Positions 6,568-58,411 of a DNA stretch of 64,000 bases are shown here, in pieces (position 1 is the first letter of the stretch; each line of letters opens with the position of its first letter). Both the position numbers and the translations under genes were made by a program. This stretch comes from Candidatus Nanoarchaeia archaeon (lineage in GTDB: Archaea > Nanobdellota > Nanobdellia > SCGC-AAA011-G17 > GW2011-AR18), in assembly GCA_035288845.1 (NCBI GenBank), contig DATDZB010000009.1, positions 8,814 through 72,813 on the forward strand, in the 5' to 3' direction. Below the pieces are notes generated by a model. That model saw nothing but the letters and a program-made list of their open reading frames with translations. It was not told the origin of the DNA and ran no database searches.

Positions 6568-6657
6568 AAAAAATTATTGGAATAGGTATATAAAAGTGTA
6601 TCTATTAAATCCAAGTAAACAATTAACTTTATAAAATACAAATAGATCAAAACAATT

Positions 6658-22570: not shown

Positions 22571-23539
22571 TTAATGTCTTAAAGTAATTGGTCTTGTTCC
22601 GGGAAATACTAAAAAATGTCCTGCATCTTTTTTTCCAGAGTCTACTGGTATAGCATCTGATATTACAGCATCAACTAAAGCATCTAATCCTGAATCTCCT
22701 ACAGAAGCATCTGCACCTGAAGTTTCTGAATCATATGTTGCTGGATTAACTCTAAGATGTAATTCCATAGGATAAGGATTATTATTACCTTCTTTTATTT
22801 TCATAGTTAAACGATATATCATATCTATTCCTGTTTCTGGTAATTCAAATTCAACTTCTTTAACTCCTTCTTTATATCCTTTAACTCTAGTCCAAGAAAG
22901 TTTAGCTTTTTTACTTTCTGGAAGTGTACCAGAAACAACAACACCACCATCTATGTATTTATGTCCACCATCTAAAAGAGCAACAGCCCTAGTTGAACCA
23001 TTTGTATAAATTGCAACTCTAGAGAAAGAACTTCCACCATCAACATGCTCAGCATCTCTAGCATAGAAACCAGCATCTGGATCGCTTACTGGAACAGTAG
23101 CTCTAGCAAAACTAACAGAATCTAACAGTTCTCCTCTATTTGCTAACCTGCATTTATAAGTACCTGGTACTAAATTTATTTCTTTGTAGCCAACTAATCT
23201 AGAGCTTGTACTTCCAGCTGAACTAGAAACTTCTAATATTTCTTCTAAAGGAAGTTCATCTCCACTTTCATTTTCAGAACATTCAACAGCTCCAGCAGGT
23301 CTAACTGTTAAGTCTATAATTGGTCTACTAGGAATATAATCAACATCTGGATAAACAACAACTGCATCTGGGTGAGTTGGAAATCCAGCATCTGAGGATT
23401 CTTCATCAGTAGTTCTTTCTTCACGAGAAGGGCTAGGAATACGTATTTCTTGTCCTACGCTTCTACCTATTAAATGATAAGCACCAATACCAATAAGTGA
23501 TGCAGCTAAAATTCCCCAAATAAATGATTTAGCACTCAT
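22571..23539 (-). CDS. membrane-anchored/secreted surface protein with D-[AS]-G linker
   Basis: N-terminal anchor 'FIWGILAASLIGIGAYHLIG'. Carries 'HPDAVVVYPD', 'DPDAGF', 'GDSGLDALVDAV...VDSGKKDAG'. An SD-like GAGGT lies upstream. Composition is non-host-like. Confidence 0.6.
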   Translation of the reverse strand: MSAKSFIWGILAASLIGIGAYHLIGRSVGQEIRIPSPSREERTTDEESSDAGFPTHPDAVVVYPDVDYIPSRPIIDLTVRPAGAVECSENESGDELPLEEILEVSSSAGSTSSRLVGYKEINLVPGTYKCRLANRGELLDSVSFARATVPVSDPDAGFYARDAEHVDGGSSFSRVAIYTNGSTRAVALLDGGHKYIDGGVVVSGTLPESKKAKLSWTRVKGYKEGVKEVEFELPETGIDMIYRLTMKIKEGNNNPYPMELHLRVNPATYDSETSGADASVGDSGLDALVDAVISDAIPVDSGKKDAGHFLVFPGTRPITLRH

Positions 23540-30007: not shown

Positions 30008-30487
30008 ATGAGTCCTATAGAAAATATTGCAAAAGAGATCTTAGTTAAATTAAGTAAAGATAAAAGAAAATATAAGTTAACTATAGATGTTAATGATGTT
30101 CCAAAAGAAAATTATTATTGTCAATATGCTCACGTAGATGAGGTGGATGAGAGCAGAAAATCAATTTTTTACTTATATTACAACACAATAAAGAAAAAAC
30201 TTCACGAAGCTGGATGTTGTATTGATATACCTGAAGAAGATAAAAGAGTAGATATAATTAAATCTATTTTTCTGAATGCAGATATTCTAAGAAAAGAAGC
30301 AGGAACACCTCCTTCTATATCAAAAAGAACACCACAAGGGTTAAACATTGTATATTCCATCTTACGTGGCGAAGCCAAAGTGACTTTAGAAGGTGGAGAA
30401 ATTTCTAAAACACAAGAAGGAGAAATAAGTCTGATTGAAGAAGAAACATCTAAAAAGAAATGGTGGCAATTCTGGAAAAAGTCTTAA
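30008..30487 (+). CDS. hypothetical protein
   Basis: 159-aa ORF with no motif. Confidence 0.4.
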
Positions 30488-30795
30488 GCTTCAATTAAAT
30501 TAATTTCAATATTTACACCTTTAGGTAAAGGTACTCTCATAACTAATCTTAAAGCTCTTTCATCTACACCTAAATCAATTAATCTTTTATGAACTCTCAT
30601 TTCAAATCTATCAAAACTAGCTTTACCTCTTCCACATGGAGCTTTTCTAGTTGTTAATTTTAATCTTTTAGTTGGTAAGGGAATTGGTCCTTTAATTTCA
30701 GTTTTAGTTTTAGTAGCTATGTCTACAATAGAATTTACTACTTCATTTAATTTATCAATTTCAGCGCTTGCTAATTTTATTCTTGCTTTTTGCAT
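30484..30795 (-). CDS. rps10: 30S ribosomal protein uS10
   Basis: The track start is GTG; the ATG at 30795 gives '[10 protein letters not shown]...[22 protein letters not shown]...[15 protein letters not shown]'. Confidence 0.92.
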
Positions 30796-30832
30796 AAAGA
30801 TCTGAAAAATCACTCGTTTTTAAAGCTTTTCT

Positions 30833-31291
30833 TTATTTAACAAGACGAAGATAAGAACTAGTAGTTCTTTCAATTCTAGGTTGCGTAAAAAAAGTACCTC
30901 TTAAATCTCTAATTAAAATGTATGCATAACTTGCAGATATTCTTCCACTTTCAACTCTCGTAGGTACATTTCCATTGTCAACTATTTCAAATGGATTTCT
31001 TATACCATTACTAAAAAATTTTAAATCTGCAGAATAATCAGCAGCAGCATGATTTCTAAATACACCACTAGTATCATAAATATTCATTCTATAATCTCCA
31101 GCTCTAACAGTTACTACATAAGGTTGTACACCACGAATAGTACTTAGAGTAGTGACTTCTTCATTAGAAGTTCCTGAAGAAAAAAGATGTATTCCTTTTT
31201 CAGGTAATCTAGTAGAAAGCATTTTATTTGCAATAATTTCAAGACGATTTATAGTAGTAGCACTAGAATTTACCCCACTTTTTTTACCCAT
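30833..31291 (-). CDS. orphan protein C, between tuf and rps10
   Basis: The track start at 31339 is TTG; the first ATG is at 31291 ('MGKKSGVNSS...'). About 152 aa, Arg outnumbers Lys, no recognisable family. Confidence 0.55.
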   Translation of the reverse strand: MGKKSGVNSSATTINRLEIIANKMLSTRLPEKGIHLFSSGTSNEEVTTLSTIRGVQPYVVTVRAGDYRMNIYDTSGVFRNHAAADYSADLKFFSNGIRNPFEIVDNGNVPTRVESGRISASYAYILIRDLRGTFFTQPRIERTTSSYLRLVK

Positions 31292-31390
31292 AAGAAATAT
31301 TAAAGATAAACTAATATAAAAAGATAGTTTAACCAACAAATAATAGTAAAAAAATATAATTAAAAAAGAAATAAAAAGTTAATGAAGAAA

Positions 31391-32671
31391 TTACTTCTTC
31401 ACTAAATCAATACACATACCAGCAGCTACAGTTTGACCTGCATCTCTGATAGCAAATCTACTCATTTGCGGTATATCTTTTTGTCTTTCAATTACTAAAG
31501 GCTTAGTAGGTTTAATTACTACTCTAGCTGCATCCCCATTCTTTAACATATCTGGGTTTTCTTGACTAACTTGTCCTGTTGCAGGATCAAGTTTAGCTAA
31601 TAATTTATCAAATCTACAAGCTACTTGAGCTGTATGTACGTGGAATACAGGTGTATAACCAACAGTTAATACTGAAGGATGATTCAATATTACTATTTGT
31701 GCTGTAAACTCAGTTACAACAGTTGGAGGGTTATCAGGTGTACCAACAACATCTCCTCTTGCAATATCTTTCTTGTTAATTCCTCTAACTGAAAATCCTA
31801 CATTGTCACCAGGTTCAGCTTCTGTTACTTGTTCGTGATGCATTTCAATAGTTTTAACTTCGCCTGCAACACCAGCGCCTTCTCTGCCTGGAACAACAAC
31901 TATTTTTTGATTAACTTTTAATACACCAGTTTCAACTCTTCCAACTGGAACTACACCAATACCAGTTATGTTGTAAACATCTTGTAAAGGTAGTCTTAAT
32001 GGTAAATTAGTTGGTTTTTGTGGTGGTGTAAATTGATCTAATTGTTCCATTATTGTAGGCCCAGTATACCAACTCATGTTAGCACTTTTCTTAACAACAT
32101 TATCTCCCAAGTAGGAAGCTGTTGGTATAAAAGGCACTTGATCTGGTTTGTAACCTACAGTTTTTAATAAATTTCCTATTTGTTCTTTAACTTCTTTGAA
32201 TTTAGCTTCGCTGTATTTAACAACATCCATCTTGTTTACAACTATTGCAATTTGATTTACACCAAATGTTTTTAACAAGAATACATGTTCTTTAGTTTGA
32301 GCCATTACTCCATCAGAAGCTGCTACAACTAAGAATGCAACATCAGCTTGACTTGCACCAGTAATCATATTTTTAATAAAGTCTCTGTGTCCTGGAGCAT
32401 CAATAACTGTATATTCAAATTTTTGACTAGTAAACTTTTTGTGACTTAAATCAATAGTTACTCCTCTTTCTTTTTCTTCTTTAAGATTATCCATAACAAA
32501 AGCAAACTCAAAACCAGCTTTTCCTAATTGCTGAGCTTCTTCTTTTAATTTTCTCATATCTTGTTCAGAAACATTACCTGAATCAAACATAAGTCTACCT
32601 ACAGTAGTACTTTTACCGTGATCTACGTGACCTACAAATACAACATTCATGTGTGGTTTTTCTCTAGCCAT
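31391..32671 (-). CDS. tuf: translation elongation factor EF-1alpha
   Basis: 'GHVDHGKST', 'DAPGHRDF', 'NKMD', and full-length aEF-1alpha similarity. Confidence 0.97.
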
Positions 32672-32803
32672 ATTTAAATTCCTCCAAATAACATAATAAC
32701 TTATTTTTCGAAATCTACGTGTATTTATAAAGATTTCTAAAGCAAGCTATAAATTAATAGACCTAAAATAAACAATAAAAAATTACTAATTGAAATAGAA
32801 AAT

Positions 32804-33181
32804 CTATTCATTCGCAAGTATCTCAAGAACTTGTGGAGGTAAAAGAACTACGTTTCCTTGTCTTATATGGTTTTCAGGAACATTTCCTTTTAAAACAACA
32901 CCTACAAGATTATCACCTACATCAACATTTTGTCTTGCATTTTCAACTAAATCAAAAGTTACATGAGGATTACCTGGAATACTAAGAACGGTTTTATAAG
33001 TATAACCATCAAATTCATCTTGCTCTGTAGCTAAAACAAAATTCACACCTCTTCTAACACCGCCAAGAAGAATATAGTCCACATTTTGATAATTTATTAC
33101 AGGTAAACCATTATGAGCTGTAACTGGAACTTGAATTGAATCAGAATTTTTCCCACCATACAAATTATAGATTATACCCAT
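32804..33181 (-). CDS. orphan protein D, between fusA and tuf, with EF-Tu domain-II-like C-terminal segment
   Basis: The track start at 33202 is TTG; the first ATG is at 33181 ('MGIIYNLYGG...'). 'VDVGDNLVGVVLKGNVPENHIRQGNVVL' parallels '[26 protein letters not shown]' in the adjacent EF-1alpha. Confidence 0.55.
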   Translation of the reverse strand: MGIIYNLYGGKNSDSIQVPVTAHNGLPVINYQNVDYILLGGVRRGVNFVLATEQDEFDGYTYKTVLSIPGNPHVTFDLVENARQNVDVGDNLVGVVLKGNVPENHIRQGNVVLLPPQVLEILANE

Positions 33182-33240
33182 AAAAAAAATAACAAAATAC
33201 AAATATTTAAAGATAATTAAAGTAAAAAAAGAATATTCAA

Positions 33241-35424
33241 TTATTGATTTTCAGTTAATCCTTTTCTCTTTCTAATTTGTTGTACAATCTTAGATTGTAA
33301 TTCAAATGGTAATTTCTCATATACTTGATCAGCAACAAAGAAAGTACCTCTACCTTCAGTAGCACTTCTTAGCTCAGAACTCAATCCAAACATTTCTGCA
33401 ACTGGAAGTTTAGCTTTTACAACAATATAATTTCCTTCTTGAGTCATATCTAATAATTGTCCTCTTTTATTAGCAATTAATTTAGATATTGCTCCCATGT
33501 GATCTTTAACAGATTCAATTTGTAAAATTTGTATTGGCTCTAAAATTACTGGAACAGCAGCAATCATACCTTCTCTAAGAGCTTCTCTAACTGCAGGATA
33601 AACTTGTGCAGGACCTCTGTGAATACTATCTTCATGTAATTTACAATCATTTAAAATAATAAGCATTTTAGTTGCAGGCTCTCTAGCTAAAACTGCTCCA
33701 TCCATAACTTGTTCAAATGCATCTAAAATTAAATCTAAAACTTCACCAATATGAACAATACCTCTTGTGTTATCTACAAATGCATTTCCATTGTAAAAAG
33801 CTTTGTATTTTAAAGCATCTTTATTATCAATTCCTAATTTAACAAGAGTGTCAATAACACGTGGATCTTTTTTCTTTATTCTTCCTGTAGATAAATCTCC
33901 ACTTTTAATTGCTTTAAATAAATCATCAGATAAAGGTTCAATTGTTAAATAAAATCTATTGTGTTTATTTGGTGATTTTCCTTCTACTTCTGGACTTTTT
34001 TTAGAAACAGTTTCTCTAAAAACTACAATAGGAGGACTTGATTTAATTTGAACTCCTTTTTCAGTTATAATTCTATTTTCAATAATTTCTAAGTGTAATT
34101 CTCCCATACCGCTCATTAAACATTCTCCTGTTTGTTCATCAATTTTAATTTTAACAGAAGGATCTTCTTTTGCTGCAGCTTTTAAAACTTCAACAACTTT
34201 AGCTAAATCTTGTGGTTTAGCAGGCTCTATTGCTTTAGTAATTACTGGTTCAAAAATATGTTTTAATTCTTCAAATGGTTGTTCTGGTTCTACAGTAATA
34301 GTTTCTCCAGCTTCAGTTCTTAAACCAGCTAAAGCTAAAACATTTCCAGCAACTACTTCTTCCATCATCTGAGTTCTAATTCCATTGTACATGAAAACTT
34401 GTTGTACTCTAGCTTTTAGTTTTGCATTACTCAAATAAATCTCCATACCGCTTTTAATTGTTCCAGAAAATAATCTGCCAGCAGCAAGTTCCCTTCCAGT
34501 TTTAGAGTCAATCATAATTCTAGTTACACAAAAAGCAACTTTTCCATTTATATTACAATTAGCTAAATCTTTACCTAATTCGCTTTCAGGATCTCCTCTC
34601 CAAATTCTAGGAATTCTATATTTCTGAGCATCAACTGGATTAGGTAGATGTTTAATTGCCATATCAAGAATAACTTCATGTAAAGGTGCATTTGCCCAAA
34701 CCCATTTTTTCTTATCATCTTCAGACATTTCATATAATTTTAAAATATCTTTAAAATTAACTTTTTTCTTCTGCATAAATGCAAATGATAAAGCCCAATT
34801 TTCTTTTGCGCTTCCAAATGCTACACTACCATCTTGAATACTAACTTTCCATTTTTCTTTAAATTCTGGTTCAGCAATTTGTTCTATTAATCTATTAAAT
34901 TGTAAAATAATTTCTGTGAATCTTTTTTGCATTTGCTCAGGAGTATATTGCATTTCTTTGATTAATCTATCAACTTTATTCAAGAACAAAACAGGTTTTA
35001 CTCTTTCTCTTAATGCTTGTTTAATAACAGTTTCAGTCTGCGGCATTATACCTTCAGAAGCACAAACTAAAACAATAGTGCCGTCAATCGCTCTCATTGC
35101 TCTAGTAACATTACCGCCAAAATCTACATGTCCAGGTGTATCAATTAAATTAATTAAATACTCTTCACCATTAAAATCATGAATCATACTTACATTAGCT
35201 GCATCAACAGTCATCAATCTTTCTTGTTCATCAGCATGTTGCCAAGTAGTCATTCCTTTATCTAAATCACCAGCACTTTGCTCACTCATCAAACCAGCTG
35301 CAGCTAATAAATTATCAGTTAAGGCAGTTTTTCCATGATGAATATGTGCACTAGTAGCAATATTTCTAATATTATCAGGTCTATGCATTGCTTTTGTGAA
35401 TCTTTTTGCTGCGTCTTCTGCCAT
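33241..35424 (-). CDS. fusA: translation elongation factor EF-2
   Basis: The track start is GTG; the ATG at 35424 gives 'MAEDAAKRF'. 'AHIHHGKTALTD', 'IDTPGHVDF', and the diphthamide-loop region 'HEDSIHRGPAQ'. Confidence 0.97.
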   Translation of the reverse strand: MAEDAAKRFTKAMHRPDNIRNIATSAHIHHGKTALTDNLLAAAGLMSEQSAGDLDKGMTTWQHADEQERLMTVDAANVSMIHDFNGEEYLINLIDTPGHVDFGGNVTRAMRAIDGTIVLVCASEGIMPQTETVIKQALRERVKPVLFLNKVDRLIKEMQYTPEQMQKRFTEIILQFNRLIEQIAEPEFKEKWKVSIQDGSVAFGSAKENWALSFAFMQKKKVNFKDILKLYEMSEDDKKKWVWANAPLHEVILDMAIKHLPNPVDAQKYRIPRIWRGDPESELGKDLANCNINGKVAFCVTRIMIDSKTGRELAAGRLFSGTIKSGMEIYLSNAKLKARVQQVFMYNGIRTQMMEEVVAGNVLALAGLRTEAGETITVEPEQPFEELKHIFEPVITKAIEPAKPQDLAKVVEVLKAAAKEDPSVKIKIDEQTGECLMSGMGELHLEIIENRIITEKGVQIKSSPPIVVFRETVSKKSPEVEGKSPNKHNRFYLTIEPLSDDLFKAIKSGDLSTGRIKKKDPRVIDTLVKLGIDNKDALKYKAFYNGNAFVDNTRGIVHIGEVLDLILDAFEQVMDGAVLAREPATKMLIILNDCKLHEDSIHRGPAQVYPAVREALREGMIAAVPVILEPIQILQIESVKDHMGAISKLIANKRGQLLDMTQEGNYIVVKAKLPVAEMFGLSSELRSATEGRGTFFVADQVYEKLPFELQSKIVQQIRKRKGLTENQ

Positions 35425-35462
35425 ATTCGAAAGCACTTAAGAATGATATTTAAAGCTTTTGC

Positions 35463-35945
35463 TTATTTTTCTATAAGAGGTTTATAAGATTCAAATTCTC
35501 TTTGAGTTACAAGATCTAAATCAAATCTTGCAAGTTCAAAAGGACCTAAAATTAACAATGGAGCATGTTGAACTTTAAAAGTATCTCTTGAAGAATTATT
35601 TGTATTTCTAGAAATGCTAAATACAACTCCGCTTGTTCTTAAAAAACCAAAATCTCTTCCATCAAATTCTAGATCATCTAAAACTCTTACAAGAGAATCA
35701 TCTTTACTTGTTGCAACAACAGGAATATATGGTCCTCCAATAAAATCCCCTAGGCAATATCTTCTATCAATATAAACTTCAAGTCCATTACTGCTTAAAT
35801 AAGAAAATAAACTATTAAACCCCTTTCTATCAATCCATCTTAATTGTGAATCATATTGTCCTACAGAATCTATTCTAGATAATTCAAGCTCTCTAGGCGC
35901 TTGTGTAGCATAAGCTGTACGTAAAACTTCTCTTAAATTTGCCAT
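35463..35945 (-). CDS. orphan protein E, immediately upstream of fusA
   Basis: 160 aa with an ATG start, about 15 Arg versus about 5 Lys by hand count, no recognisable family. Confidence 0.55.
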   Translation of the reverse strand: MANLREVLRTAYATQAPRELELSRIDSVGQYDSQLRWIDRKGFNSLFSYLSSNGLEVYIDRRYCLGDFIGGPYIPVVATSKDDSLVRVLDDLEFDGRDFGFLRTSGVVFSISRNTNNSSRDTFKVQHAPLLILGPFELARFDLDLVTQREFESYKPLIEK

Positions 35946-36220
35946 ATTAAAAATATAAAGGAAAAAGTTTTAAAGATAACTAACAAATTAAATAGATGAA
36001 AAAAGACGAAGAAAGTTCAATCGAAGCAGTTCTTGATGAAGTATTTATATTTTAAATAATATAAAACATGAAAGAATAAAATCCTTAGATGAAACTAAAT
36101 TAACTCCAAAACAAGAAAAAATAATTGAAAGTATTGAAAAAGATATTGATGTTTGTGTAACAAAATTAGGATTACTAGTACATCCAAAAGAATTATAAAT
36201 CAAAAGTTTATTCCAAGATT

Positions 36221-36472
36221 ATGGTAAGAAGTTTAAAATACTGGGAAGGAAGAAAAACAATATTAACTCTAGAAGACGGAACAATTTATAATGGGTCAAT
36301 AAAATATGGCGGAGTTGGTAATTATTCTGTTTACAATTTTGAAACTGTAAAAGGAAAATTAATACCTGTTTCTGGCAATGGTGTACATCGTTTAACTGCT
36401 AACGAAGGTGGCTTAGTAAGAAAAGTAGGTTATAACAAAACAAGAAGTCAAGTATTACAAGAAAAAGTATAA
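36221..36472 (+). CDS. hypothetical small Gly-rich protein
   Basis: 83 aa, 'GSIKYGGVGNYSVYNF...VSGNGVHRLTANEGGLVRKVG'. No family. Confidence 0.45.
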   Translation: MVRSLKYWEGRKTILTLEDGTIYNGSIKYGGVGNYSVYNFETVKGKLIPVSGNGVHRLTANEGGLVRKVGYNKTRSQVLQEKV

Positions 36473-36478
36473 ATTAAA

Positions 36479-37057
36479 ATGGAAGAAATAAAAATTGTTA
36501 AAATAGGACATAAAGTAGAAGACTTTGAATTAGAAGCATTTCATAATAATGAAGTAAAGAAAGTAAAATTATCAAATCTAAAAGGAAAATGGATAGTTCT
36601 AGTATTTTATCCAGCAGATTTCACATTTATATGTCCAACAGAATTAACTGAGCTAGCAGATTTGTATAATGAATTTAAAAAAGAAAAAGCTGAAGTTTTA
36701 AGTGTAAGCACAGATACAGTATTTGTACATAAAGCATGGCATGATAATTCTGAATCAATTAAAAAAATAAAATATCCAATGTTAGCTGATCCAACTGGAA
36801 AAGTTTGCAAGCAATTTGGAACTTATATTTATGAAGAAGGACTTTCATTAAGAGGAAGTTTTGTAATAGATCCAGATGGAATACTAAAAGCATATGAATT
36901 GCACGATAATAGCATAGGAAGAAATGCTAAAGAATTATTAAGAAAATTAAAGGCAGCTAAATTTGTAAAAGAACATGGTGGAGAAGTTTGTCCTGCAAAT
37001 TGGGAACCAGGTAAAAAAACACTAAAACCAGGTCTTGATTTAGTTGGAAAAATTTAA
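36479..37057 (+). CDS. typical 2-Cys peroxiredoxin (AhpC/Prx1)
   Basis: 'FYPADFTFICPTEL' (peroxidatic Cys) and 'EVCPANW' (resolving Cys). Confidence 0.9.
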   Translation: MEEIKIVKIGHKVEDFELEAFHNNEVKKVKLSNLKGKWIVLVFYPADFTFICPTELTELADLYNEFKKEKAEVLSVSTDTVFVHKAWHDNSESIKKIKYPMLADPTGKVCKQFGTYIYEEGLSLRGSFVIDPDGILKAYELHDNSIGRNAKELLRKLKAAKFVKEHGGEVCPANWEPGKKTLKPGLDLVGKI

Positions 37058-37067
37058 AGGTGAAAAA

Positions 37068-37661
37068 ATGACATATGAAATTAAAAATTTTGATGAAATA
37101 TTAGGAACTCCTGGATTTTCTGAACAATTATTAAAAAACCATTTTAAATTATATGAAGGTTATGTAAATAATACAAATAAACTATCTCAAATATTAAAAG
37201 ATATGTTAAAAAATGGAAAAACAGATACTCCTGAATTTGCTGAATTAAAAAGAAGATTTGGCTGGGAATTTAATGGAATGAGATTACATGAATTATATTT
37301 CGGAAACATAAGTAAAAAGAAAAAAGAAATGCCAACCAAATCTGTTTTGTTTAAAAAAATGGTAGAAGAATTTGGTTCAGGAGAAAATTGTGAAAAAGAT
37401 TTTGTTTCTACAGGTACAATGCGTGGAATTGGCTGGGTAATAATGTATTATGATAAAGAAGCAGATAGATTATTTAATACCTGGATTAACGAGCATGATG
37501 TTGGGCATTTATCAAGTTGTATTCCAATTTTAATTATGGATGTATTTGAACATGCTTACATGATAGACTACGGTCTAAAAAAAGCAGATTATATTAAAGC
37601 TTTTGTAGATGCAATTGATTGGGATGTTGTACAAAAAAGATTTGAAGAGACACAAAAATAA
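37068..37661 (+). CDS. Fe/Mn superoxide dismutase family protein (divergent)
   Basis: Start moved to the ATG at 37068, preceded by AAGGTGA. All four ligand positions are readable: 'NHFKLY', 'RLHELYF', 'DVFEHAYMIDY'. Confidence 0.8.
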   Translation: MTYEIKNFDEILGTPGFSEQLLKNHFKLYEGYVNNTNKLSQILKDMLKNGKTDTPEFAELKRRFGWEFNGMRLHELYFGNISKKKKEMPTKSVLFKKMVEEFGSGENCEKDFVSTGTMRGIGWVIMYYDKEADRLFNTWINEHDVGHLSSCIPILIMDVFEHAYMIDYGLKKADYIKAFVDAIDWDVVQKRFEETQK

Positions 37662-37699
37662 TGCAAATCTTTTTATATTAAAAAAATTATAAATATTCA

Positions 37700-38956
37700 A
37701 TGAAAGAAAAAACAATATTTTTATCTTTAATTTTTGTATGTTTAACAATATCATTTTTATTAATAGGACCAGTTATAACTGGAAATTTTATTCTAAATAG
37801 AAATTTAGAATCAACAAGTTATGATCAAATGTTTTCCATATTTAGACCTAGATCAACACCTTCTGGTTGTTTTATAGATATGGATTGTCAAAGTGGAGAA
37901 TATTGTGGGAGTGGGGGGGTATGTAGACCTCAAGGACAATTAGGACAAAGATGTTTTTTAGATTCACAATGTCGTTCTGATGTTTGTTCATTATTAGATC
38001 CTATTTCTGGAGTAAGAACTTGTCTTGAATCAGGTTTAGGTGTAAGTGAGTCTTGCATATTAAATAAACAATGTAATTCAGGAGCTTGTCTAAATAATAA
38101 TTGTGCAATTGGCAATTTAAATAATGGAGATTCATGTGTTAACGATTTGCAATGTAAATCAAGATTCTGTAACTTAATTAATGACAATAGATGTGCTCCA
38201 AGCAATTTATTAAAAGAAGGTATGACTTGTTCAAATTCAAGAGAATGTAGAGGTAATTATTGTAGTATAGCTAAATCAATATGTTTAGAAAGAAATAAAC
38301 TATTCATAAATGGAGAAAAATGTTATGATAATGGAGAATGTAGATCAGGTAGGTGTTACCAAAATAGATGTGGACCAGTTAAAAGAGATGGCAGTGGTTG
38401 TACAATAGATAACGAATGTTCATATCTTAGTTTCTGTTTAAACAACATATGTACAGTAATGCATACAGTTCAAACTGGTTCAGCATGTCAAAACCCAAAG
38501 CAATGTATATATGAGCCTTGTATAAATGGAATATGTACTCAAACATGGTTACAAGATGGACAAACATGCGATTATGATACAAATTGTTTATCTGGAGTAT
38601 GTGCAAATAATATTTGTGAACCTAGGGAAGTTCTTAATTTAAATGATCCTTGTTCTAAAGATTTACAATGTATTAGTCATACGTGTGCAAATAGTATTTG
38701 TATAATACAAAATTCTTTACAAGGGGGATCAACTTGTCAAAACAACAATCAATGTCAAACAAAAATATGTGAAAATAATAGATGTGCTTTATTTAGATTA
38801 GAGGGAATTGGAAGAGTATGTTCATCGCACTTTGAATGCAGATCTGGTTTATGTCAAAACCATATTTGCCTTGCAAGTTATTTAAATAGAGGAGAACAAT
38901 GTACAATACATGCACAATGTCAATCAAATAAATGTAGAAATGGCGCTTGTGCTTAA
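37700..38956 (+). CDS. secreted cysteine-rich repeat protein (about 12 tandem 4-Cys modules)
   Basis: N-terminal TM/signal 'IFLSLIFVCLTISFLLIGPVITG', then repeated 'G-x2-C-x5-C-x-S-x2-C-x3-5-C' modules, e.g. GEKCYDNGECRSGRCYQNRCG, GQTCDYDTNCLSGVCANNICE and GEQCTIHAQCQSNKCRNGACA. Confidence 0.75.
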   Translation: MKEKTIFLSLIFVCLTISFLLIGPVITGNFILNRNLESTSYDQMFSIFRPRSTPSGCFIDMDCQSGEYCGSGGVCRPQGQLGQRCFLDSQCRSDVCSLLDPISGVRTCLESGLGVSESCILNKQCNSGACLNNNCAIGNLNNGDSCVNDLQCKSRFCNLINDNRCAPSNLLKEGMTCSNSRECRGNYCSIAKSICLERNKLFINGEKCYDNGECRSGRCYQNRCGPVKRDGSGCTIDNECSYLSFCLNNICTVMHTVQTGSACQNPKQCIYEPCINGICTQTWLQDGQTCDYDTNCLSGVCANNICEPREVLNLNDPCSKDLQCISHTCANSICIIQNSLQGGSTCQNNNQCQTKICENNRCALFRLEGIGRVCSSHFECRSGLCQNHICLASYLNRGEQCTIHAQCQSNKCRNGACA

Positions 38957-38961
38957 TAAAA

Positions 38962-39564
38962 ATGTTAAATGCTTTCATTAATAATTATTATTTAGAAAAT
39001 AAAAGAATATTAAAAACAAAATTCATAAAAGCAAAACCATTTCCTTATTTAGTATTAAAAAAATTTTTCAAAGATGAACTTATAAATAATTTAGCAAAAG
39101 AATTAAAAAAGGAAAACTTCCAAAAACAAGAATCAGATTTATTTTCATTTTCACAAACAAATGATTTAGAAAATTCAAATAATAAAGTAGTAAAAGAATT
39201 TTATAATTTTATTAACTCAAATAAACTTAAAAATTATGTTGAAGAAATAACTGAAATTAAAGCTTACAACAAAATAGACGTTTCTGCATTTATTTACACA
39301 GATAAAGACTATCTTCTGCCTCATGATGATAGGCTTGAAACAAGAAAGATTGCTTATGTATTAAACTTATCAAAAGATTTTACAAGATTAGATGGCGGTT
39401 CCTTAGATTTTTTCAAAAATAATAAAGCTGTAAAAATAATTCAGCCAACATTTAATACATTTACAATATTTAAAGTAATAAAAAATAAAACATATCATCA
39501 AGTTTCTGAAGTATTAACAAATAAGGAAAGATTAAGTATTGCAGGATGGTTTAATAATGATTAA
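38962..39564 (+). CDS. 2OG-Fe(II) oxygenase, Tpa1/Ofd1/OGFOD1-type catalytic (N-terminal) domain
   Basis: The track start is TTG; the ATG is at 38962. 'FPYLVLKKFF', HxD 'LLPHDD', 'RKIAYVLNL', 'GGSLDFF', distal His 'YHQVSEV', 'RLSIAGWF'. Confidence 0.8.
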   Translation: MLNAFINNYYLENKRILKTKFIKAKPFPYLVLKKFFKDELINNLAKELKKENFQKQESDLFSFSQTNDLENSNNKVVKEFYNFINSNKLKNYVEEITEIKAYNKIDVSAFIYTDKDYLLPHDDRLETRKIAYVLNLSKDFTRLDGGSLDFFKNNKAVKIIQPTFNTFTIFKVIKNKTYHQVSEVLTNKERLSIAGWFNND

Positions 39565-40069
39565 CAAGATTTATAATAATAAAGATACAATAAATCAAAT
39601 AAAATTGGTACTAGAAAAAGAAGGAAATATTCAATTACAAAATTTCTTAATAGACTTACCAAAAATCAAAGTTAAGCTAAAAGAAGTTTATATACCGCAA
39701 TTACACAAATATAGATTTAATAATTTTAAAATAAATAAAGAAATAAAAGAATTCATAGAAAAAATAATAAATAAAAAATTAATTTCATCAAAAGTTTATG
39801 AATTTAAACATACAGATTACACCTTAATTAATGATAATATAAAAGAAAAAGAAGGGTATAAAATAATATTAGACTTAACGAAAAATTGGAATGAAGAAGC
39901 AAATGGTTATACTTCATTTATAAAAAATAATGAAGAAGTATTCAGAATAAATCCAGCTTATAATTCATTAACAATAATTAAAACAAATAAAAATATGAAA
40001 AGCTTTGTAAAATATGTAAATAATAAAGCTAAAGATAATAAAAGATTCTTTATTGAGATTAACGTTTAG
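39557..40069 (+). CDS. Ofd1/Tpa1 C-terminal (non-catalytic DSBH) domain-like protein
   Basis: ATG at 39557 overlaps the upstream stop by 8 nt. 'YEFKHTDYTLI', 'ILDLTKNWNEEANGYTSF', 'NSLTII', 'SFVKYVNNKA'. Confidence 0.6.
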   Translation: MINKIYNNKDTINQIKLVLEKEGNIQLQNFLIDLPKIKVKLKEVYIPQLHKYRFNNFKINKEIKEFIEKIINKKLISSKVYEFKHTDYTLINDNIKEKEGYKIILDLTKNWNEEANGYTSFIKNNEEVFRINPAYNSLTIIKTNKNMKSFVKYVNNKAKDNKRFFIEINV

Positions 40070-40349
40070 TAAATTTTAAAACTTTATAAGAATCGCCATG
40101 TTTTGTATAAGTAACTATTCCTTCATCGTTAGGTTTAGTACCATTATAAATATCAAGATTAAAAGAAACAAAATGTAATCCATTTTCTCTATTAGAAAAA
40201 ACAACTTCTGGTTTAGAATCAGGATATCTCATTTCATATTTATGTCTAACAACAACTTCTGCAGTATGTGTAGAACCTATATCAAGAACAGGAGAAGAAA
40301 TACTTCTAACTTTACTAACTAAACCACTAACTGTATTTACTATATTCAT
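40059..40349 (-). CDS. orphan protein G, immediately downstream of rps7
   Basis: 96 aa with an ATG start and a beta-rich sequence. No family. Confidence 0.5.
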   Translation of the reverse strand: MNIVNTVSGLVSKVRSISSPVLDIGSTHTAEVVVRHKYEMRYPDSKPEVVFSNRENGLHFVSFNLDIYNGTKPNDEGIVTYTKHGDSYKVLKFTKR

Positions 40350-40397
40350 TTTTGTCTCAAACCACTAAAAATTTGAAAAGAAAAAAGATTTATAAAA

Positions 40398-40994
40398 TTA
40401 CCTACTTGAATCAGCTTGTCTTTCTAATTCTAATTTCTTAGAAACAGCTTGACTTGCTTGATCTAAATTATAAGCATTAAATATTTCATCAGCCAAAGCT
40501 TCAGACATACTTTTTTTCTTACCAAAACTTTTACCAAAAGCACCTTGTATAAATTGTCTTAAAGCAATATCTATTCTTCTTTGAGGAGCACAGTCTACTG
40601 CTTGAGGATATCTTGCACCACCATATTCAATAGCTGTAATTTCTTCTCTAGGTGCAGCATTTTCTAGTGCTTTAACATAAACTTGAATTGGATTTAATTT
40701 TGTTTTTTCTTCTAAAATTTCAAAAGTTCTTTTAACCATTTTGTAAACATGAGTACCTTTTCCAGTAACATGTCCGCTTGATCTATAATGTTTTTTACCT
40801 TTATGACCTGGAACCATAAGTTTGTTAATTAACCTCTCAACAATATTTACTTTGCTTTTTCCAAATCTAATATTTGAGTTTCTACCAAAACTTCTAGGAA
40901 CTAACATAGCAGAAAGATCAACATATCTTTTCAAACCTGGGTCTTCTACATTAACTCCATTTAAACTCCATTTATCAAAAATTTTAAATTCCAT
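40398..40994 (-). CDS. rps7: 30S ribosomal protein uS7
   Basis: Full-length similarity to archaeal S7 ('INKLMVPGHKGKKH', 'NAAPREEITAIEYGGARYPQAVD'). Confidence 0.95.
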   Translation of the reverse strand: MEFKIFDKWSLNGVNVEDPGLKRYVDLSAMLVPRSFGRNSNIRFGKSKVNIVERLINKLMVPGHKGKKHYRSSGHVTGKGTHVYKMVKRTFEILEEKTKLNPIQVYVKALENAAPREEITAIEYGGARYPQAVDCAPQRRIDIALRQFIQGAFGKSFGKKKSMSEALADEIFNAYNLDQASQAVSKKLELERQADSSR

Positions 40995-40996
40995 AT

Positions 40997-41434
40997 TTAT
41001 CTTCTTCCCTTCTCAATCTTTCCTTTTAATAAAGCATCTAAGCTCTGATCATTAACTTTTATTACTTGCCATCTAACACAAGGAATATCTCCTTTTGCTC
41101 TTCCCATTTTTCCACCAATACATTCAATTAAAACTTCGTCATGTTCATTAATAAATTTTTGAGCATTATCACCTGGAATAAATACAGTAACTTGTTTACC
41201 ATTTTTCAATAATTGTACAACACATGCTTTTCTCATTGCAGAATTAGGCTGTTTAGCTTCAATTTGTCTTTTTTCTAAAACTATACCCTTAGCTTGATGT
41301 GCTCCTCTTAATGGATCAGCTTTTTCTTTAAGATGTAATGCCTTCTTAGTAAACCATTTATTATGCCATCTAGCAGCTTGTCTTTTATTTTTAAGCTTTT
41401 TACCAGACATTAATCCATTACTCTTATTTCCCAT
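40997..41434 (-). CDS. rps12: 30S ribosomal protein uS12
   Basis: '[40 protein letters not shown]' is the archaeal/eukaryotic uS12 core. Confidence 0.97.
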
Positions 41435-41505
41435 AATTTTTTGAATAAGACACCATTTATAAAGGTTTTTGTTACTTCTACTAGAAATCTAAGAAAAAGA
41501 AAAAA

Positions 41506-41940
41506 TTAGAGAAGATTATTCTCTTCTACTTCTATTTTAAAGTAAGTAACAGGATAATGTGCATAAGCATCCTTACGACCTTCATCTATATCAACTACTC
41601 TATGAATAAGATCAGCATCAGGATCTCTTGTTGTTAGTTCTACCCCATACATAAATGTAGGTTTTCCCACAAAATAAGCATTTGCATCAGCAGCATATAA
41701 AGGTTTTTGTGTTTCTACTTCTCCATAAAGAGAAGGAGGGAAAAATTCAGGTTGTCCCCATTTAATCCCACTATGATCTTTTTGATCAACCCTGCTAGGG
41801 ATCTGTACAATAGTTACTCCTACAAATTCAGGAGAACCAACCATTCCATCCAGAGCTAATTTTCTATCCTTTTGAGTAAGTCTTCTTAATGAACCCATTT
41901 CATTTATTTCTTGTGTATCAATTCTTTGTGCATTTACCAT
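41506..41940 (-). CDS. orphan protein H, between nusA and rps12
   Basis: 144 aa with an ATG start. No recognisable family. Confidence 0.55.
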   Translation of the reverse strand: MVNAQRIDTQEINEMGSLRRLTQKDRKLALDGMVGSPEFVGVTIVQIPSRVDQKDHSGIKWGQPEFFPPSLYGEVETQKPLYAADANAYFVGKPTFMYGVELTTRDPDADLIHRVVDIDEGRKDAYAHYPVTYFKIEVEENNLL

Positions 41941-42012
41941 AAAATAAGATACTAAGAAATACTTATGAAAATTACGTATAAATTATATTTCGAGTATAAT
42001 AAGTATATACAG

Positions 42013-42417
42013 CTAAACAACTTGAACTTCTACATCAAAATATTTCTTAACTATAGAATTAATTTTTTTCAAATTTTCTTTGCTTCTTCCAAAAATTCTT
42101 CCCTTAATATTCATGTCTTCAACCATAATCTTAACAGTTTTATCTTCTAATTTTATATCATCAGCTTTATTCGGATAAATTAAATTTCTAACAAATTTAC
42201 AAACATCATCTGAAAATCCAACAACTTTAATATCTTTTTTCATAATATTACTTACTCTTTTAATATTAGAACCTTCTTTACCAATTGCTTTTTTTATACT
42301 TCCTTCTTCAACTAGAAAAACAATTTTACCTTCATCATCAAAACAATCTTTAACTCTAGCACCAGTCAAGTTTTCAAATAAATTTATGTTGTTTATACTA
42401 TCTAAAGTAAGTTTCAT
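42013..42417 (-). CDS. nusA: archaeal NusA-like protein (two KH domains)
   Basis: The track start is TTG; the ATG is at 42417. 'GKEGSNIKRV' and 'GRSKENLKKI' are GxxG KH loops. Conserved position after L30e. Confidence 0.85.
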   Translation of the reverse strand: MKLTLDSINNINLFENLTGARVKDCFDDEGKIVFLVEEGSIKKAIGKEGSNIKRVSNIMKKDIKVVGFSDDVCKFVRNLIYPNKADDIKLEDKTVKIMVEDMNIKGRIFGRSKENLKKINSIVKKYFDVEVQVV

Positions 42418-42421
42418 ATTT

Positions 42422-42664
42422 TTACTCAAATCCAACTACTGAAATAGCAAAAGGTTTTTTGCATAAAACACCAAGATCTTTGCTTTTTTCATCTAAAAAA
42501 ATAACTTCTATATTTGCTAATTTAGTTAATGCTGCAATTCTTTCTTTCCCAGAACAATTAGAAGAAACATATAATTTAGAAATTTTATTACTTCTAAGTC
42601 TCTTTAAATTTACTTGTAAACCTAAAATTGGTTTTTTAGTGCTTAAATCATTCTTTAGTGTCAT
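42422..42664 (-). CDS. rpl30e: 50S ribosomal protein L30e (short)
   Basis: 80 aa. 'GLQVNLKRLRSNKISKLYVSSNC' and 'LGVLCKKPFAISVVG'. Conserved position between rpoA'' and nusA. Confidence 0.8.
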   Translation of the reverse strand: MTLKNDLSTKKPILGLQVNLKRLRSNKISKLYVSSNCSGKERIAALTKLANIEVIFLDEKSKDLGVLCKKPFAISVVGFE

Positions 42665-43787
42665 TTTCTACCCCATCAATCTTTAATTTTGAAATTAATC
42701 CAGGTAATCCTGTACCTAATGGCACTGGTTGATTGATAATTACGTTTTCAACAACACTATTTAAATTATCTCTTTCTCCAATTAAGCTGGCATTAATTAT
42801 ATGTTTAATAGGTGTTTCAAAACTAGCTCTAGCTAAAACACTTTCTTTTTCACCAGTAATACCAGTTCTTGTTACTCCTTTAACAACACCTGTTCTAGTC
42901 ATAACATCAGCAAGCAACATAATATGTCTAACATCAATATCAATTCCTTGATCTTTAATTACTCCTAAAGATTCTTCTAAAACTGCAGCTCTTGCAGCTT
43001 CTACACCTAAAACTTTTGAAATTTCAAAGATATCATTTGTTTTTATTTTTTCAACATCTGCTTCTTCTAAATTTAAAGCATCTTCTAAATTGCTACCAGC
43101 ACAATGAACAACATAATCTCCATCATCATTTTTAACAGGTAAAACATGAGTAATTCCTTTCAATCCAATTAAATGTATTAATTTAGCTTTTTCTTTTAGT
43201 CTATAAACTTCATTTAAAGGCAATTCCTTATCTTTAGGTTTAAGCGTTACAACAGCACCATCATCTTTAACATCAACAGTCTTCATTCCTTCTATTACCT
43301 TATCAATAATAAATTTAGGTTTCAAATCTAAATCTTTTAATTTTTTCTTATCTAAAGTAAATTCAATAATTCTTTTAGCAACATTAATTGAAATATCTTG
43401 TAATACTTCATCTAATCTTGTTTCCTTAATTTTCAAAGCAACACTTCTAACCATATCTACAGTTTTAGAATATTTTTGTTTAATTGGAATTTCCATTTTA
43501 GGAGTACTAGGTTTTTTTCTAGCATCAAAAATTTCAATTAATCTAGGTAAACCAACTGTAACATTCATCTCTTCTACACCAGCGAAGTGGAATGTATTCA
43601 AAGTCATCTGAGTAGAAGGTTCACCAAAACTTTCAGCAGTAATTACACCAATAGATTCACCAGGAGCAATTTTTCCCCATTTGTAAGCTTCAGTAACTTT
43701 CTTAATAATTTCTTGTTTATCTTTATCACTAATTTTATATTTTTTAGCATAAGATTCTATTCTATCTGTTAAATGTTTTGGTAGCAT
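42648..43787 (-). CDS. rpoA2: DNA-directed RNA polymerase subunit A''
   Basis: 'ESIGVITAESFGEPSTQMTLNTFHFAGV' and the C-terminal 'NVIINQPVPLGTG'. Confidence 0.95.
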   Translation of the reverse strand: MLPKHLTDRIESYAKKYKISDKDKQEIIKKVTEAYKWGKIAPGESIGVITAESFGEPSTQMTLNTFHFAGVEEMNVTVGLPRLIEIFDARKKPSTPKMEIPIKQKYSKTVDMVRSVALKIKETRLDEVLQDISINVAKRIIEFTLDKKKLKDLDLKPKFIIDKVIEGMKTVDVKDDGAVVTLKPKDKELPLNEVYRLKEKAKLIHLIGLKGITHVLPVKNDDGDYVVHCAGSNLEDALNLEEADVEKIKTNDIFEISKVLGVEAARAAVLEESLGVIKDQGIDIDVRHIMLLADVMTRTGVVKGVTRTGITGEKESVLARASFETPIKHIINASLIGERDNLNSVVENVIINQPVPLGTGLPGLISKLKIDGVENDTKE

Positions 43788-52310: not shown

Positions 52311-52320
52311 CAACGAGGTT
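52311..52320 (-). promoter_or_regulatory. candidate TATA box for tRNA-Asp precursor
   Basis: 'TTTATAAATA' lies about 21-30 nt upstream of 52290, overlapping the LAGLIDADG stop codon. Confidence 0.3.
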
Positions 52321-53021
52321 TATTTATAAAACTTTTTATTCAATAAATCCAATCTTTGGGAATAAGACATCTTAGGAGGATAATAACCTATTTTTCTCCA
52401 AATCTCAATCTTCGTAGTATGTTTTGGATTACTAAAACCAATATGTTTCAACCATATATTTAGGTTGTCTTTACCACAAATATCTATCTGATATTCAATA
52501 TATAATTTACCATTGAAAGTTTTTTTAACTTTATAAATAGAAGAAGTTATACTAAATTTAGTTAAATATTTTTTTAGTTGATAAACAAAATTCATATTAG
52601 AAAATGATGCAGTAATAACAGGATAAGAATGGTATTTTCTACTTTTCTTTTTAAAAGTTACACTAAAATCAGTATCTGCAACTCCTTTTAAAAATTTAGA
52701 TATAAACTTAGAATTTTTATTTATAAAATCAGGTATTATCATAACTTTAGGACCACTAGGTAAGCCTAGTGAATTAAGTTTTCTTACAATATATTTAGAA
52801 TAAGTAGCAAGTGCTATTGCTTTTTTATTCTTATGGTACCATAAAGATAAGTTAATATTAAATTTATTATAAAACAAAGGCTTAACGTAATTAGTCAAAT
52901 ATTCAAAGTCTTCATGTTTATGGCCTGTAATAACAACCCTATATGTGCCATTATTTTCATAAATATTTCCATCTCCTAAAATTATACCAATTAACTCAGC
53001 AAAATTAGCATCACAAAACAT
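52320..53021 (-). CDS. free-standing LAGLIDADG homing endonuclease (two-motif, monomeric type)
   Basis: 'FAELIGIILGDGNIY' and 'FLKGVADTDFS' are spaced about 100 aa apart. Confidence 0.85.
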   Translation of the reverse strand: MFCDANFAELIGIILGDGNIYENNGTYRVVITGHKHEDFEYLTNYVKPLFYNKFNINLSLWYHKNKKAIALATYSKYIVRKLNSLGLPSGPKVMIIPDFINKNSKFISKFLKGVADTDFSVTFKKKSRKYHSYPVITASFSNMNFVYQLKKYLTKFSITSSIYKVKKTFNGKLYIEYQIDICGKDNLNIWLKHIGFSNPKHTTKIEIWRKIGYYPPKMSYSQRLDLLNKKFYK

Positions 53022-53220: not shown

Positions 53221-53351
53221 TCCCTGCTGCCAGATTCGAACCAGCAACCTCACGGGATCAGCTGTCTGTTTTTCATTTCCAGCAATTAAAGCATTAGATC
53301 AAACAGTGAATTAATCTACAGCCGTGTGCTCTACCATTGAGCTAAGCAGGG
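53221..53351 (-). tRNA. tRNA-Tyr(GUA) with one roughly 59-nt anticodon-loop intron
   Basis: Acceptor CCCTGCT/AGCAGGG (C1-G72, the archaeal/eukaryal Tyr identity pair), anticodon arm CACGG-CTGTAG...-CCGTG, T arm GCTGG-TTCGAAT-CTGGC. The exact junction (37/38 or 38/39) is not resolved by hand. Confidence 0.8.
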
Positions 53352-53426: not shown

Positions 53427-54299
53427 TTAAAATGCTTTAACATTGTATAAAGCATCAGCACTAGTTGATGTTCTACCACTTTGATCTCTAGTTTCTAATC
53501 TAGCTCTTTGTGTTCCTAATGAATTGAAAGTTGGTGTAACACCACACCCATCAGTATTAACCATACCAGGATAGTTTGTATCAAAAAATATTGATAAACG
53601 ATGACCGCTTGGAATATATACACCAGTTCCATTACCTTCGTGTCCTCTTAAAGGTATATGACCTCTCATTGCTAATCTAGCGTCAGTAGAAGTACAAGTT
53701 AAATTGTATCCTCTTCTAGTTCCATAAATAACATCTTGATTAGGTCCTAAACCTCTTCCTATTCTAGCTATAGTTGAAGTAGGAACTCTAAATCCACCAT
53801 CTATTGAAAAAGGACCAGCATCTCCGCCATCTCCAAATCCGCCATCAACAGGTGTAAAACCTGCATCAAATAAAGCATCAGATAATCCACTACCAGAATC
53901 TAAAGAACCAGCATCTATAGGATTTCCCATATCATCAAAACCAGCATCAATACTATTTACAACAGCATCTAAAACACTTCCAGAATCTAAAATTTCAGAA
54001 CCATCGTTTGTTGTACTTGCATCAGCAGTAGCATCTCTATAAACTCCAGGTAAATCTGGCTCTTGTCCGCAATCACAAGCACTAAGTGCAAGTAAAGAAC
54101 CTAATAAAACAGATGAACCATAAGCTCTTTCAGCTGAATTTATTCTAGAATTACTAGTTAATGCATTTAATGTAGGTCTATTGAATCCTCTTCTAGATCT
54201 TCTGTTTCCATTTACTAGATTACTAGAAACTGTACTTCTATATTGGCTAAGTTCTCTACGAGTTTGATAAGATAAATCTGTAATATTTTTGTTTGACAT
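53427..54299 (-). CDS. putative lipoprotein/surface protein with D-[AS]-G linker
   Basis: Arg-rich N-terminus, hydrophobic segment ending in the lipobox-like 'LLALSAC', then 'LDSGSVLDAV...IDAGFDD...IDAGSLDSGSGLSDALFDAGF...DGGFGDGGDAG'. Only about 2 Lys in 290 aa. Confidence 0.6.
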   Translation of the reverse strand: MSNKNITDLSYQTRRELSQYRSTVSSNLVNGNRRSRRGFNRPTLNALTSNSRINSAERAYGSSVLLGSLLALSACDCGQEPDLPGVYRDATADASTTNDGSEILDSGSVLDAVVNSIDAGFDDMGNPIDAGSLDSGSGLSDALFDAGFTPVDGGFGDGGDAGPFSIDGGFRVPTSTIARIGRGLGPNQDVIYGTRRGYNLTCTSTDARLAMRGHIPLRGHEGNGTGVYIPSGHRLSIFFDTNYPGMVNTDGCGVTPTFNSLGTQRARLETRDQSGRTSTSADALYNVKAF

Positions 54300-58366: not shown

Positions 58367-58411
58367 AGGTAAAAATTAAAGGAAAAATTCTTAAACCTAA
58401 CTAAAGAAAAT

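Follow-up and report, generated by a model that had tools for sequence, protein, structure and literature searches.

We investigated five small open reading frames (ORFs), here called C, D, E, G and H, that lie among translation genes in a 64,000-nucleotide (nt) stretch of a Candidatus Nanoarchaeia archaeon (GCA_035288845.1, contig DATDZB010000009.1, positions 8,814-72,813 of the forward strand), referred to below as the window. The five are lineage-specific orphan genes in variable inter-operon slots, a kind of gene that is already known. With a probability of roughly 0.6, we read them as mutually unrelated, independently promoted genes with a fast turnover, sitting in permissive slots where one transcription unit of a loosened str/L30e cluster gives way to the next. 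The original prediction, made from the sequence alone, had put them forward as an undescribed system. This is not supported; what we found are variable slots with different genes in related genomes.

The canonical gene order of the archaeal str/L30e cluster is known (PMC10833476), and the window has the same genes in the same order and orientation. Its minus strand reads rpoH, rpoB'', rpoB', rpoA', rpoA'', L30e, NusA, H, S12, S7, G, a 3.8 kb plus-strand block, E, EF-2, D, EF-1alpha, C and S10. Pfam identifies the flanking rpoH, L30e, NusA-KH, S12, S7, EF-2, EF-1alpha and S10, bearing out the names first given to the six genes from NusA to S10; the rpoB and rpoA identities come from translations and gene order alone. 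However, the window's cluster is not compact. The opposite-strand block and the five orphans are spread over four of its junctions, and S12-S7, EF-2, EF-1alpha and S10 each have their own promoter-like box. C, D and H sit in gaps of 0.3-0.8 kb, while the stretch from S7 to EF-2 measures 4.9 kb. The ORFs had been described as interleaved one by one with the cluster genes, which is accurate for C, D and H; G and E instead flank the plus-strand block, and the junctions rpoA''/L30e, L30e/NusA and S12/S7 are uninterrupted.

The GC content of the window is 27.8%. The closest EF-1alpha to its own is found in the groundwater Woesearchaeota metagenome-assembled genome (MAG) RIFCSPHIGHO2_02_FULL_29_10 (83% in the tblastn match, 84% in a full-length alignment), and the following eighty best EF-1alpha loci all belong to Woesearchaeota/Nanoarchaeia, or to mislabelled MAGs of the same kind. 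In NCBI, ORF D is a hypothetical protein from a 'Candidatus Nanoarchaeia archaeon' MAG. No entry identical to the window's EF-1alpha or S12 turned up in exact-sequence look-ups.

The ORF map confirmed five co-directional minus-strand ORFs of 96-160 amino acids (aa) from an ATG (Table 1). They had been judged too long to have arisen by chance, and this held: the longest ATG-initiated ORF in 2000 shuffles per slot matched the observed length 0, 0, 0, 1 and 0 times for C, D, E, G and H, respectively. The GC content at first codon positions (GC1) is 41-58%, against 4-13% at third positions (GC3), and for each ORF only the stated frame has a positive codon log-likelihood under a model trained on the window's conserved genes. 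Arginine is almost always encoded by AGA, as in the conserved host genes. Contigs from four independent ENA assemblies carry an identical D flanked by EF-2 and EF-1alpha, and the longest contig also has C and S10; the arrangement is therefore not an assembly artefact. On these contigs, which are 99.2-100% identical to the window, gene callers also called C and D; the single-nucleotide differences are bunched at contig ends and none falls in C or D (too few for pN/pS). Shorter versions of C, E, G and H occur among public gene calls. The five proteins are predicted to be soluble, have a negative GRAVY and are nearly free of cysteine, and the 3' end of G overlaps a convergent Ofd1_CTDD-type ORF by 11 nt. 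Judged by length, codon signal and recurrence, C, D, E, G and H are real, expressed-looking, lineage-restricted protein genes.

None of the five matches Pfam, PHROGs, PADLOC, NCBIfam or PDB sequences, and they are thus family-less, as first proposed. We also searched 1.84 billion representative proteins exhaustively with HMMER, using the five concatenated ORFs as the query. It returned only identical self fragments of each ORF, three relatives of D and one of E; C, G and H had no relative in this set. The identical fragments mean that the genome is present in public data. Profile searches of a 5.8-billion-protein set added one further D relative and nothing new for E or G, and a local phmmer search against 14,500 six-frame ORFs from all the loci described below found only the D family, the homologue of E and a homologue of G. 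All-against-all BLASTP (word size 2) detected no similarity among the five (best E 0.5), and including the other lysine-poor ORFs found none either. The original suggestion of a gene family that colonises operons, here one paralogous family in the cluster, is thus not supported. Nor does any orphan resemble a neighbouring conserved gene in a similarity test against the neighbours.

Several known kinds of element were considered and set aside. Five scans of IMG/VR found no relatives of the ORFs on viral contigs, and a viral origin is not supported. No nuclease, integrase, recombinase, transposase or toxin domain was detected in the five (Pfam, PHROGs, NCBIfam, PADLOC), and no direct or inverted repeats flank them beyond promoter motifs, which leaves a homing endonuclease, transposase or integrase cassette without its domain or its terminal repeats. 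As single genes without a toxin domain, they do not form toxin-antitoxin modules. They also do not look like targets of a diversity-generating retroelement: the window has no template/variable repeat pair, and no reverse transcriptase is apparent in its ORF list, although no family search was aimed at one.

To see how the cluster is built in related genomes, we mapped its conserved genes in 80 genome loci around EF-1alpha and 80 metagenome loci around S7, and counted junctions on about 150 of these loci, calling a junction open if its gap was at least 250 nt. In most Woesearchaeota, the series rpoA''-L30e-NusA-S12-S7 is tight (median gaps of 7-38 nt), and EF-2 to EF-1alpha and EF-1alpha to S10 are moderately tight (medians of 205 and 93 nt). 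L30e/NusA is open in 0% of loci, S12/S7 in 14%, NusA/S12 in 15%, rpoA''/L30e in 18%, EF-1alpha/S10 in 20%, EF-2/EF-1alpha in 42% and S7/EF-2 in 94%. The statement that these genes normally abut is thus not a rule in Woesearchaeota, where the junctions from NusA to S10 are open in 14-94% of loci. The nearest relatives of the window are the most open, with the EF-1alpha/S10 slot occupied in 6/9 loci that have an EF-1alpha at least 75% identical and include S10. Of 165 slot ORFs, 142 have no relative among the other slot ORFs. Those with a Pfam match are heterogeneous and include OMP decarboxylase, pyruvate kinase, HMG-CoA reductase, MsrA, NDK, GMP synthase, a phage-type integrase, methyltransferases, and PIN and PemK toxins (the toxins in slots of loci L002 and L003). 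As judged from these loci, the slots of the cluster are sites of gene turnover, with mostly unrelated genes in different genomes.

The same pattern appears at closer range in a sister genome (L001, also seen as contig L090), whose EF-1alpha is 84% identical to the window's. Its gene order is that of the window: S7, the oxygenase pair, superoxide dismutase (SOD), peroxiredoxin (Prx), an E-like ORF, EF-2, EF-1alpha, S10 and a shared 117-aa ORF. The EF-2/EF-1alpha slot holds two family-less ORFs of 158 and 96 aa without similarity to D, and the EF-1alpha/S10 slot one family-less ORF of 79 aa without similarity to C; the C and D slots of L002-L005 likewise hold unrelated genes. The sister has 13 ORFs absent from the window. 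Beyond the slot ORFs just named, nine ORFs that the window lacks lie between its S7 and EF-2. E has a homologue (P0009) in the same position upstream of EF-2, at 26% identity (26-27%), and G has a weak positional homologue downstream of S7 (L090 2757-3077, 23% identity). Their neighbours are much better preserved: 84% for EF-1alpha, 86% for S10, 87% for Prx, 74% for SOD, 71% and 58% for the two oxygenase ORFs, and 67% for the 117-aa ORF. Prx, SOD and both oxygenase ORFs are the genes of the plus-strand block kept in the sister. By these identities, E and G have diverged far faster than their neighbours. H was not found in L092, L009, L021, L096 or L112, nor in any examined locus with an open NusA/S12 slot. 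One check proposed at the outset was whether orthologues of the five occupy the same slots in relatives; we found positional homologues of E and G, in the sister only.

The sister's EF-2 (L090 10495-14130) is 1211 aa long and contains an intein with a LAGLIDADG domain, whereas the window's EF-2, of 727 aa, has no intein.

Promoter-like boxes locate the orphans relative to transcription units. An exact CTTTAWA lies 30 or 31 nt upstream of the ATG in 9 of the window's 83 ORFs, including S10, EF-2, S12, D and E; boxes were also found for C, G and, as a weaker candidate, H (Table 1). An archaeal TATA box sits about 26 nt upstream of the start site. We read the CTTTAWA-type boxes as putative archaeal TATA boxes, and by their spacing C, D and E would be transcribed with almost no leader; the distance of 30-31 nt in nine ORFs suggests that many transcripts are leaderless and that the geometry of promoters is strongly fixed. 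The boxes of S10 and EF-2 follow the stop codons of C and E, and the junctions without a box (rpoA''/L30e, L30e/NusA and S12/S7) are those where genes overlap or abut and nothing is inserted. The orphans therefore appear to lie between transcription units, not inside operons. Co-transcription with the translation genes had been read from their position, but it is not implied: D and E carry the same CTTTAAA box, at -31 and -30, as S10 and EF-2, and the conserved genes have boxes of their own, located right behind the stop codon of the ORF before them. Runs of T follow D and H, and none follow C or E.

The upstream regions of E (35942-35983) and of a family-less ORF at 57818-58366 (58363-58404) are 79% identical over 42 nt, and D shares the TTA(G/A)TTA-N-CTTTAAA part of them. 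Orphan genes may thus have a promoter or regulator site in common that differs from the AAAAGCTTTAAA of S10 and EF-2.

Composition also sets the five apart from most of the genome. They had been called rich in arginine and poor in lysine. This applies to C and E (3-4% lysine, 9% arginine); D is poor in both (2% and 3%), and G and H are moderately lysine-poor (8% and 6%). The departure from the lysine-rich genome average is nevertheless real. FYMINK residues make up 24-32% of the five and GARP residues 17-26%, similar to EF-1alpha and S10, while ordinary genes of the window, such as the oxygenase pair, have 48-58% FYMINK. Recent import from a GC-richer donor is not supported; the GC3 of 4-13% and the use of AGA match the host, and all D relatives lie in loci of 31-32% GC. 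Other lysine-poor ORFs of the window are mostly family-less or weakly matched, and the sister's extra ORFs share the bias.

Lysine-poor, arginine-, glycine- and alanine-rich family-less ORFs with the low GC3 of the host occur at 22571-23539, 53427-54299 (1% lysine, 8% arginine), 55257-55802, 57818-58366 and 62902-63903, among others. Annotated non-translation genes have 11-17% lysine, and the same two classes are seen in the sister's extra ORFs.

ORF D is the only one of the five with a family of some size. Its five members, each representing a cluster, are 29-46% identical to one another and share 19 invariant columns, which indicates purifying selection on particular residues of the D family. 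The relatives lie in other genomic contexts, none of them in the EF-2/EF-1alpha slot; one, on a contig of 85 kb (L087), has a SAM methyltransferase on one side and Hjc on the other, and another shares a short contig with a ParE toxin gene. An AlphaFold2 model from the five-sequence alignment is all-beta with nine strands, at a predicted local distance difference test (pLDDT) score of 73. Foldseek found no match for it in PDB (best E 0.3) or BFVD (best E 0.8), with template modelling (TM) scores below 0.3. By eye, D had seemed to resemble domain 2 of EF-1alpha ('GDN..G..V.G...I.RG.VV'); Smith-Waterman alignment gave a z of only 0.3 for such a diverged copy, and for the EF-Tu/EF-1alpha domain 2 beta-barrel (GTP_EFTU_D2) hhalign returned a probability of 1.7%, with no Pfam match and no EF-Tu match in Foldseek. 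When E, H, C and G were modelled in AlphaFold2 as one concatenated chain, together with one E homologue, E folded weakly as alpha/beta (pLDDT around 50) and the models of C, G and H were unusable (around 20).

Contig L087 also carries, at most 10 kb from its D-family gene, an RVT_1 reverse-transcriptase gene (5922-7022) and an IS1595 transposase, neither of which was found to be linked to D.

How might such slots arise? We propose that the loosened cluster consists of the units rpoH...L30e-NusA, S12-S7, EF-2, EF-1alpha and S10, with the orphans at their boundaries. With a TATA-like box for each unit in this clade, DNA can be inserted between units without breaking an operon, and the orphans bring or have promoter-like boxes of their own, which in C, D and E are about 30 nt away from the ATG. 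The essential and highly conserved flanks would make large deletions lethal and thereby shield the slots. The same conservation would offer homology for recombination with DNA of diverged relatives, so that accessory genes could accumulate and be exchanged. The products would be small soluble accessory proteins, dispensable for translation. Given the turnover and divergence, our guess, and it is purely a guess, is that they act in biotic interactions (with a host, viruses or competitors) rather than in the ribosome.

A number of points weigh against this account. Under a purely neutral slot model there would be no need for two species to keep E beside EF-2 and G downstream of S7, yet both do. 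Fast, weakly constrained evolution under AT pressure would not readily produce the composition of the orphans. With no run of T after E or C, read-through into EF-2 and S10 is possible, and the promoters and transcript boundaries are predicted from motifs. The recombination and the shadow cast by lethal deletions are steps that we infer. Finally, the slot comparison with the sister took in the C, D, E and G slots; H was tested in other loci, the sister's H slot lying outside the recovered sequence.

One alternative is that the ORFs include fast-evolving, lineage-specific translation accessory proteins kept beside their partners for co-regulation, with E (partner EF-2) and G (partner uS7/uS12) as the main candidates. 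The shared positions of E and G in the window and the sister would fit this, as would the strong box and spacing that D and E have in common with S10, EF-2 and S12, and the resemblance of the orphans to translation proteins in composition. An Ofd1/Tpa1-like oxygenase pair also adjoins G, and eukaryotic enzymes of the Ofd1/Tpa1/OGFOD1 type hydroxylate the ribosomal protein uS12. We nevertheless consider it quite improbable. E and G have kept 23-26% identity against 58-87% for their neighbours, and neither was traced in about 165 other Woesearchaeota loci or elsewhere in the 1.84 billion representative proteins. The sister's C and D slots hold unrelated genes, the D relatives are not near translation genes, and neither EF-1alpha domain 2 nor any of the neighbouring genes proved similar. 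Ribosome or elongation-factor accessory proteins had been one of the explanations offered for the five; with C and D absent from the same slots of the closest relatives, and E and G kept in a single sister, the idea fails for C and D, by the refutation test first set for it, and is weak for E and G.

The ORFs might also be carried by selfish or mobile cassettes, which would target spacers between highly conserved genes and spread by recombination via the conserved flanks, like free-standing homing endonuclease genes or phage morons. Slot content does change between close relatives, relatives' slots carry PIN and PemK toxins and a phage-type integrase, the sister's EF-2 harbours its intein, and each orphan is self-contained, with a promoter-like box and, behind some, a run of T. 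We still regard this as unlikely, as the five lack mobility or toxin domains, flanking repeats and viral relatives, each is single-copy, and strain contigs, 99-100% identical, show no presence/absence polymorphism. Very improbable, in our view, is that the ORFs are non-functional, whether spurious frames or decaying remnants of longer genes. C and H have no homologue anywhere searched, the pLDDT of C, G and H is about 20, and public gene calls include shortened C, E, G and H. However, low pLDDT is expected from single-sequence input, the ORF lengths were matched in at most 1/2000 shuffles, the codon signal is strong and frame-specific with its GC1/GC3 contrast, the boxes stand at canonical spacing, and the D family has its invariant positions. 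A more far-reaching reading, to which we give little credence, is that either the junctions are selected cassette-exchange sites, with ultra-conserved flanks as recombination arms and strong leaderless promoters driving diversifying, lysine-poor, GARP-rich small proteins in symbiont-host or virus interactions, or E and G are fast-evolving partners of EF-2 and uS7/uS12. If true, either would mean that reduced archaeal genomes organise their accessory genes in a manner not described before.

Orphan genes in permissive slots, the reading we prefer, have parallels elsewhere. Phage morons are independent transcription units inserted between conserved genes, and the slots similarly hold one small gene with its own promoter-like box, sometimes with a run of T, between two undisturbed conserved genes, with content that is unrelated from genome to genome. 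The window's slots differ in being on a cellular chromosome, with no viral relatives found. Free-standing homing endonuclease genes of the T4 seg/mob type also lie between conserved genes and are comparable as small ORFs interleaved with conserved genes and patchy among relatives, but the five have no GIY-YIG, HNH or LAGLIDADG domain. In the streamlined genome of SAR11, the hypervariable region HVR2 lies between the 23S and 5S rRNA genes (PMC2217521). There too, variable lineage-specific content is wedged between conserved genes of the translation apparatus and differs between close relatives while the flanks are kept. However, HVR2 is one island of 48 kb with surface-polysaccharide genes, whereas the window has several single-gene slots of 0.3-0.8 kb with small orphan proteins, and its variation is seen between species rather than within a population. 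More generally, hypothetical genes form 30-80% of archaeal genes, a genomic 'dark matter' (PMC6393860). The five resemble such ORFans as small, family-less proteins with a very narrow phyletic spread. They differ in being concentrated where genes of the most conserved cluster meet, and in a composition that departs from the genome average.

If this verdict is right, a place inside the universal translation cluster implies by itself neither a function in translation nor a 'system', and the Woesearchaeota cluster is better seen as a series of units, each with its own promoter, between which genes can be gained and lost. Turnover in the slots is very fast right beside the slowest-evolving genes (23-26% for E and G against 58-87% for neighbours), and the family-less genes form a compositional class (lysine-poor, GARP-rich, with host-low GC3) beyond what mutation bias alone gives. 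Together, these pose testable questions on how reduced DPANN genomes acquire and keep accessory genes.

Table 1. Coordinates of the five orphan ORFs, the promoter-like boxes and the surrounding genes in the window (pI, isoelectric point).
Feature	Position	Strand	Remarks
ORF C	30833..31291	-	152 aa from ATG (168 aa from upstream TTG); basic, pI 9.9; between EF-1alpha and S10; no relative found
ORF D	32804..33181	-	125 aa; acidic, pI 4.8; between EF-2 and EF-1alpha
ORF E	35463..35945	-	160 aa; acidic, pI 5.2; directly upstream of EF-2
ORF G	40059..40349	-	96 aa; basic, pI 9.3; downstream of S7
ORF H	41506..41940	-	144 aa; acidic, pI 4.9; between NusA and S12; no relative found
TTTTTATA box of C	31315..31322	-	31 nt upstream of ATG
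CTTTAAA TATA-like box of D	33206..33212	-	31 nt upstream of ATG
CTTTAAA TATA-like box of E	35969..35975	-	30 nt upstream of ATG
TTTTATAAA box of G	40389..40397	-	47-48 nt upstream of ATG, immediately after S7 stop codon
TTTATA box of H	41977..41982	-	42 nt upstream of ATG; weaker candidate
CTTTAAA box of S10	30819..30825	-	at -30, just after C stop codon
CTTTATA box of EF-1alpha	32726..32732	-	at -61, leader with GGAGG; motif
CTTTAAA box of EF-2	35449..35455	-	at -31, just after E stop codon
CTTTATA box of S12-S7 unit	41458..41464	-	at -30; motif
rps10 (uS10)	30484..30795	-	Pfam
tuf (EF-1alpha)	31391..32671	-	Pfam
fusA (EF-2)	33241..35424	-	727 aa, without intein; Pfam
Opposite-strand block	36221..40069	+	83-aa orphan, peroxiredoxin, Fe/Mn SOD, Cys-rich 418-aa protein, 2OG-Fe(II) oxygenase, Ofd1_CTDD ORF
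rps12-rps7 operon	40398..41434	-	2 nt apart, nothing inserted; ORF map, Pfam
rpoA''-L30e-NusA	42013..43787	-	overlapping, nothing inserted; ORF map, Pfam

Within the plus-strand block, the cysteine-rich repeat protein of 418 aa (37700-38956) has an N-terminal hydrophobic segment and weak matches to EB module, DUF7107 and Dickkopf_N; it is missing from the sister's syntenic block. It is followed by the 2OG-Fe(II) oxygenase ORF (38962-39564, Pfam 2OG-FeII_Oxy_4) and the Ofd1_CTDD ORF (39557-40069), which together look like a split enzyme of the Ofd1/Tpa1/OGFOD1 type. The pair, kept in the sister as given above, is about 1 kb away from the S12-S7 operon.

Rfam found two tRNAs in the whole window and no non-coding RNA in the slots. 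One of the tRNAs is 131 nt long (53221-53351, minus strand) and was missed by ARAGORN, and therefore probably contains an intron. About 200 nt from it lies the window's one LAGLIDADG ORF, a free-standing LAGLIDADG_3 gene of 233 aa (52320-53021, minus strand).

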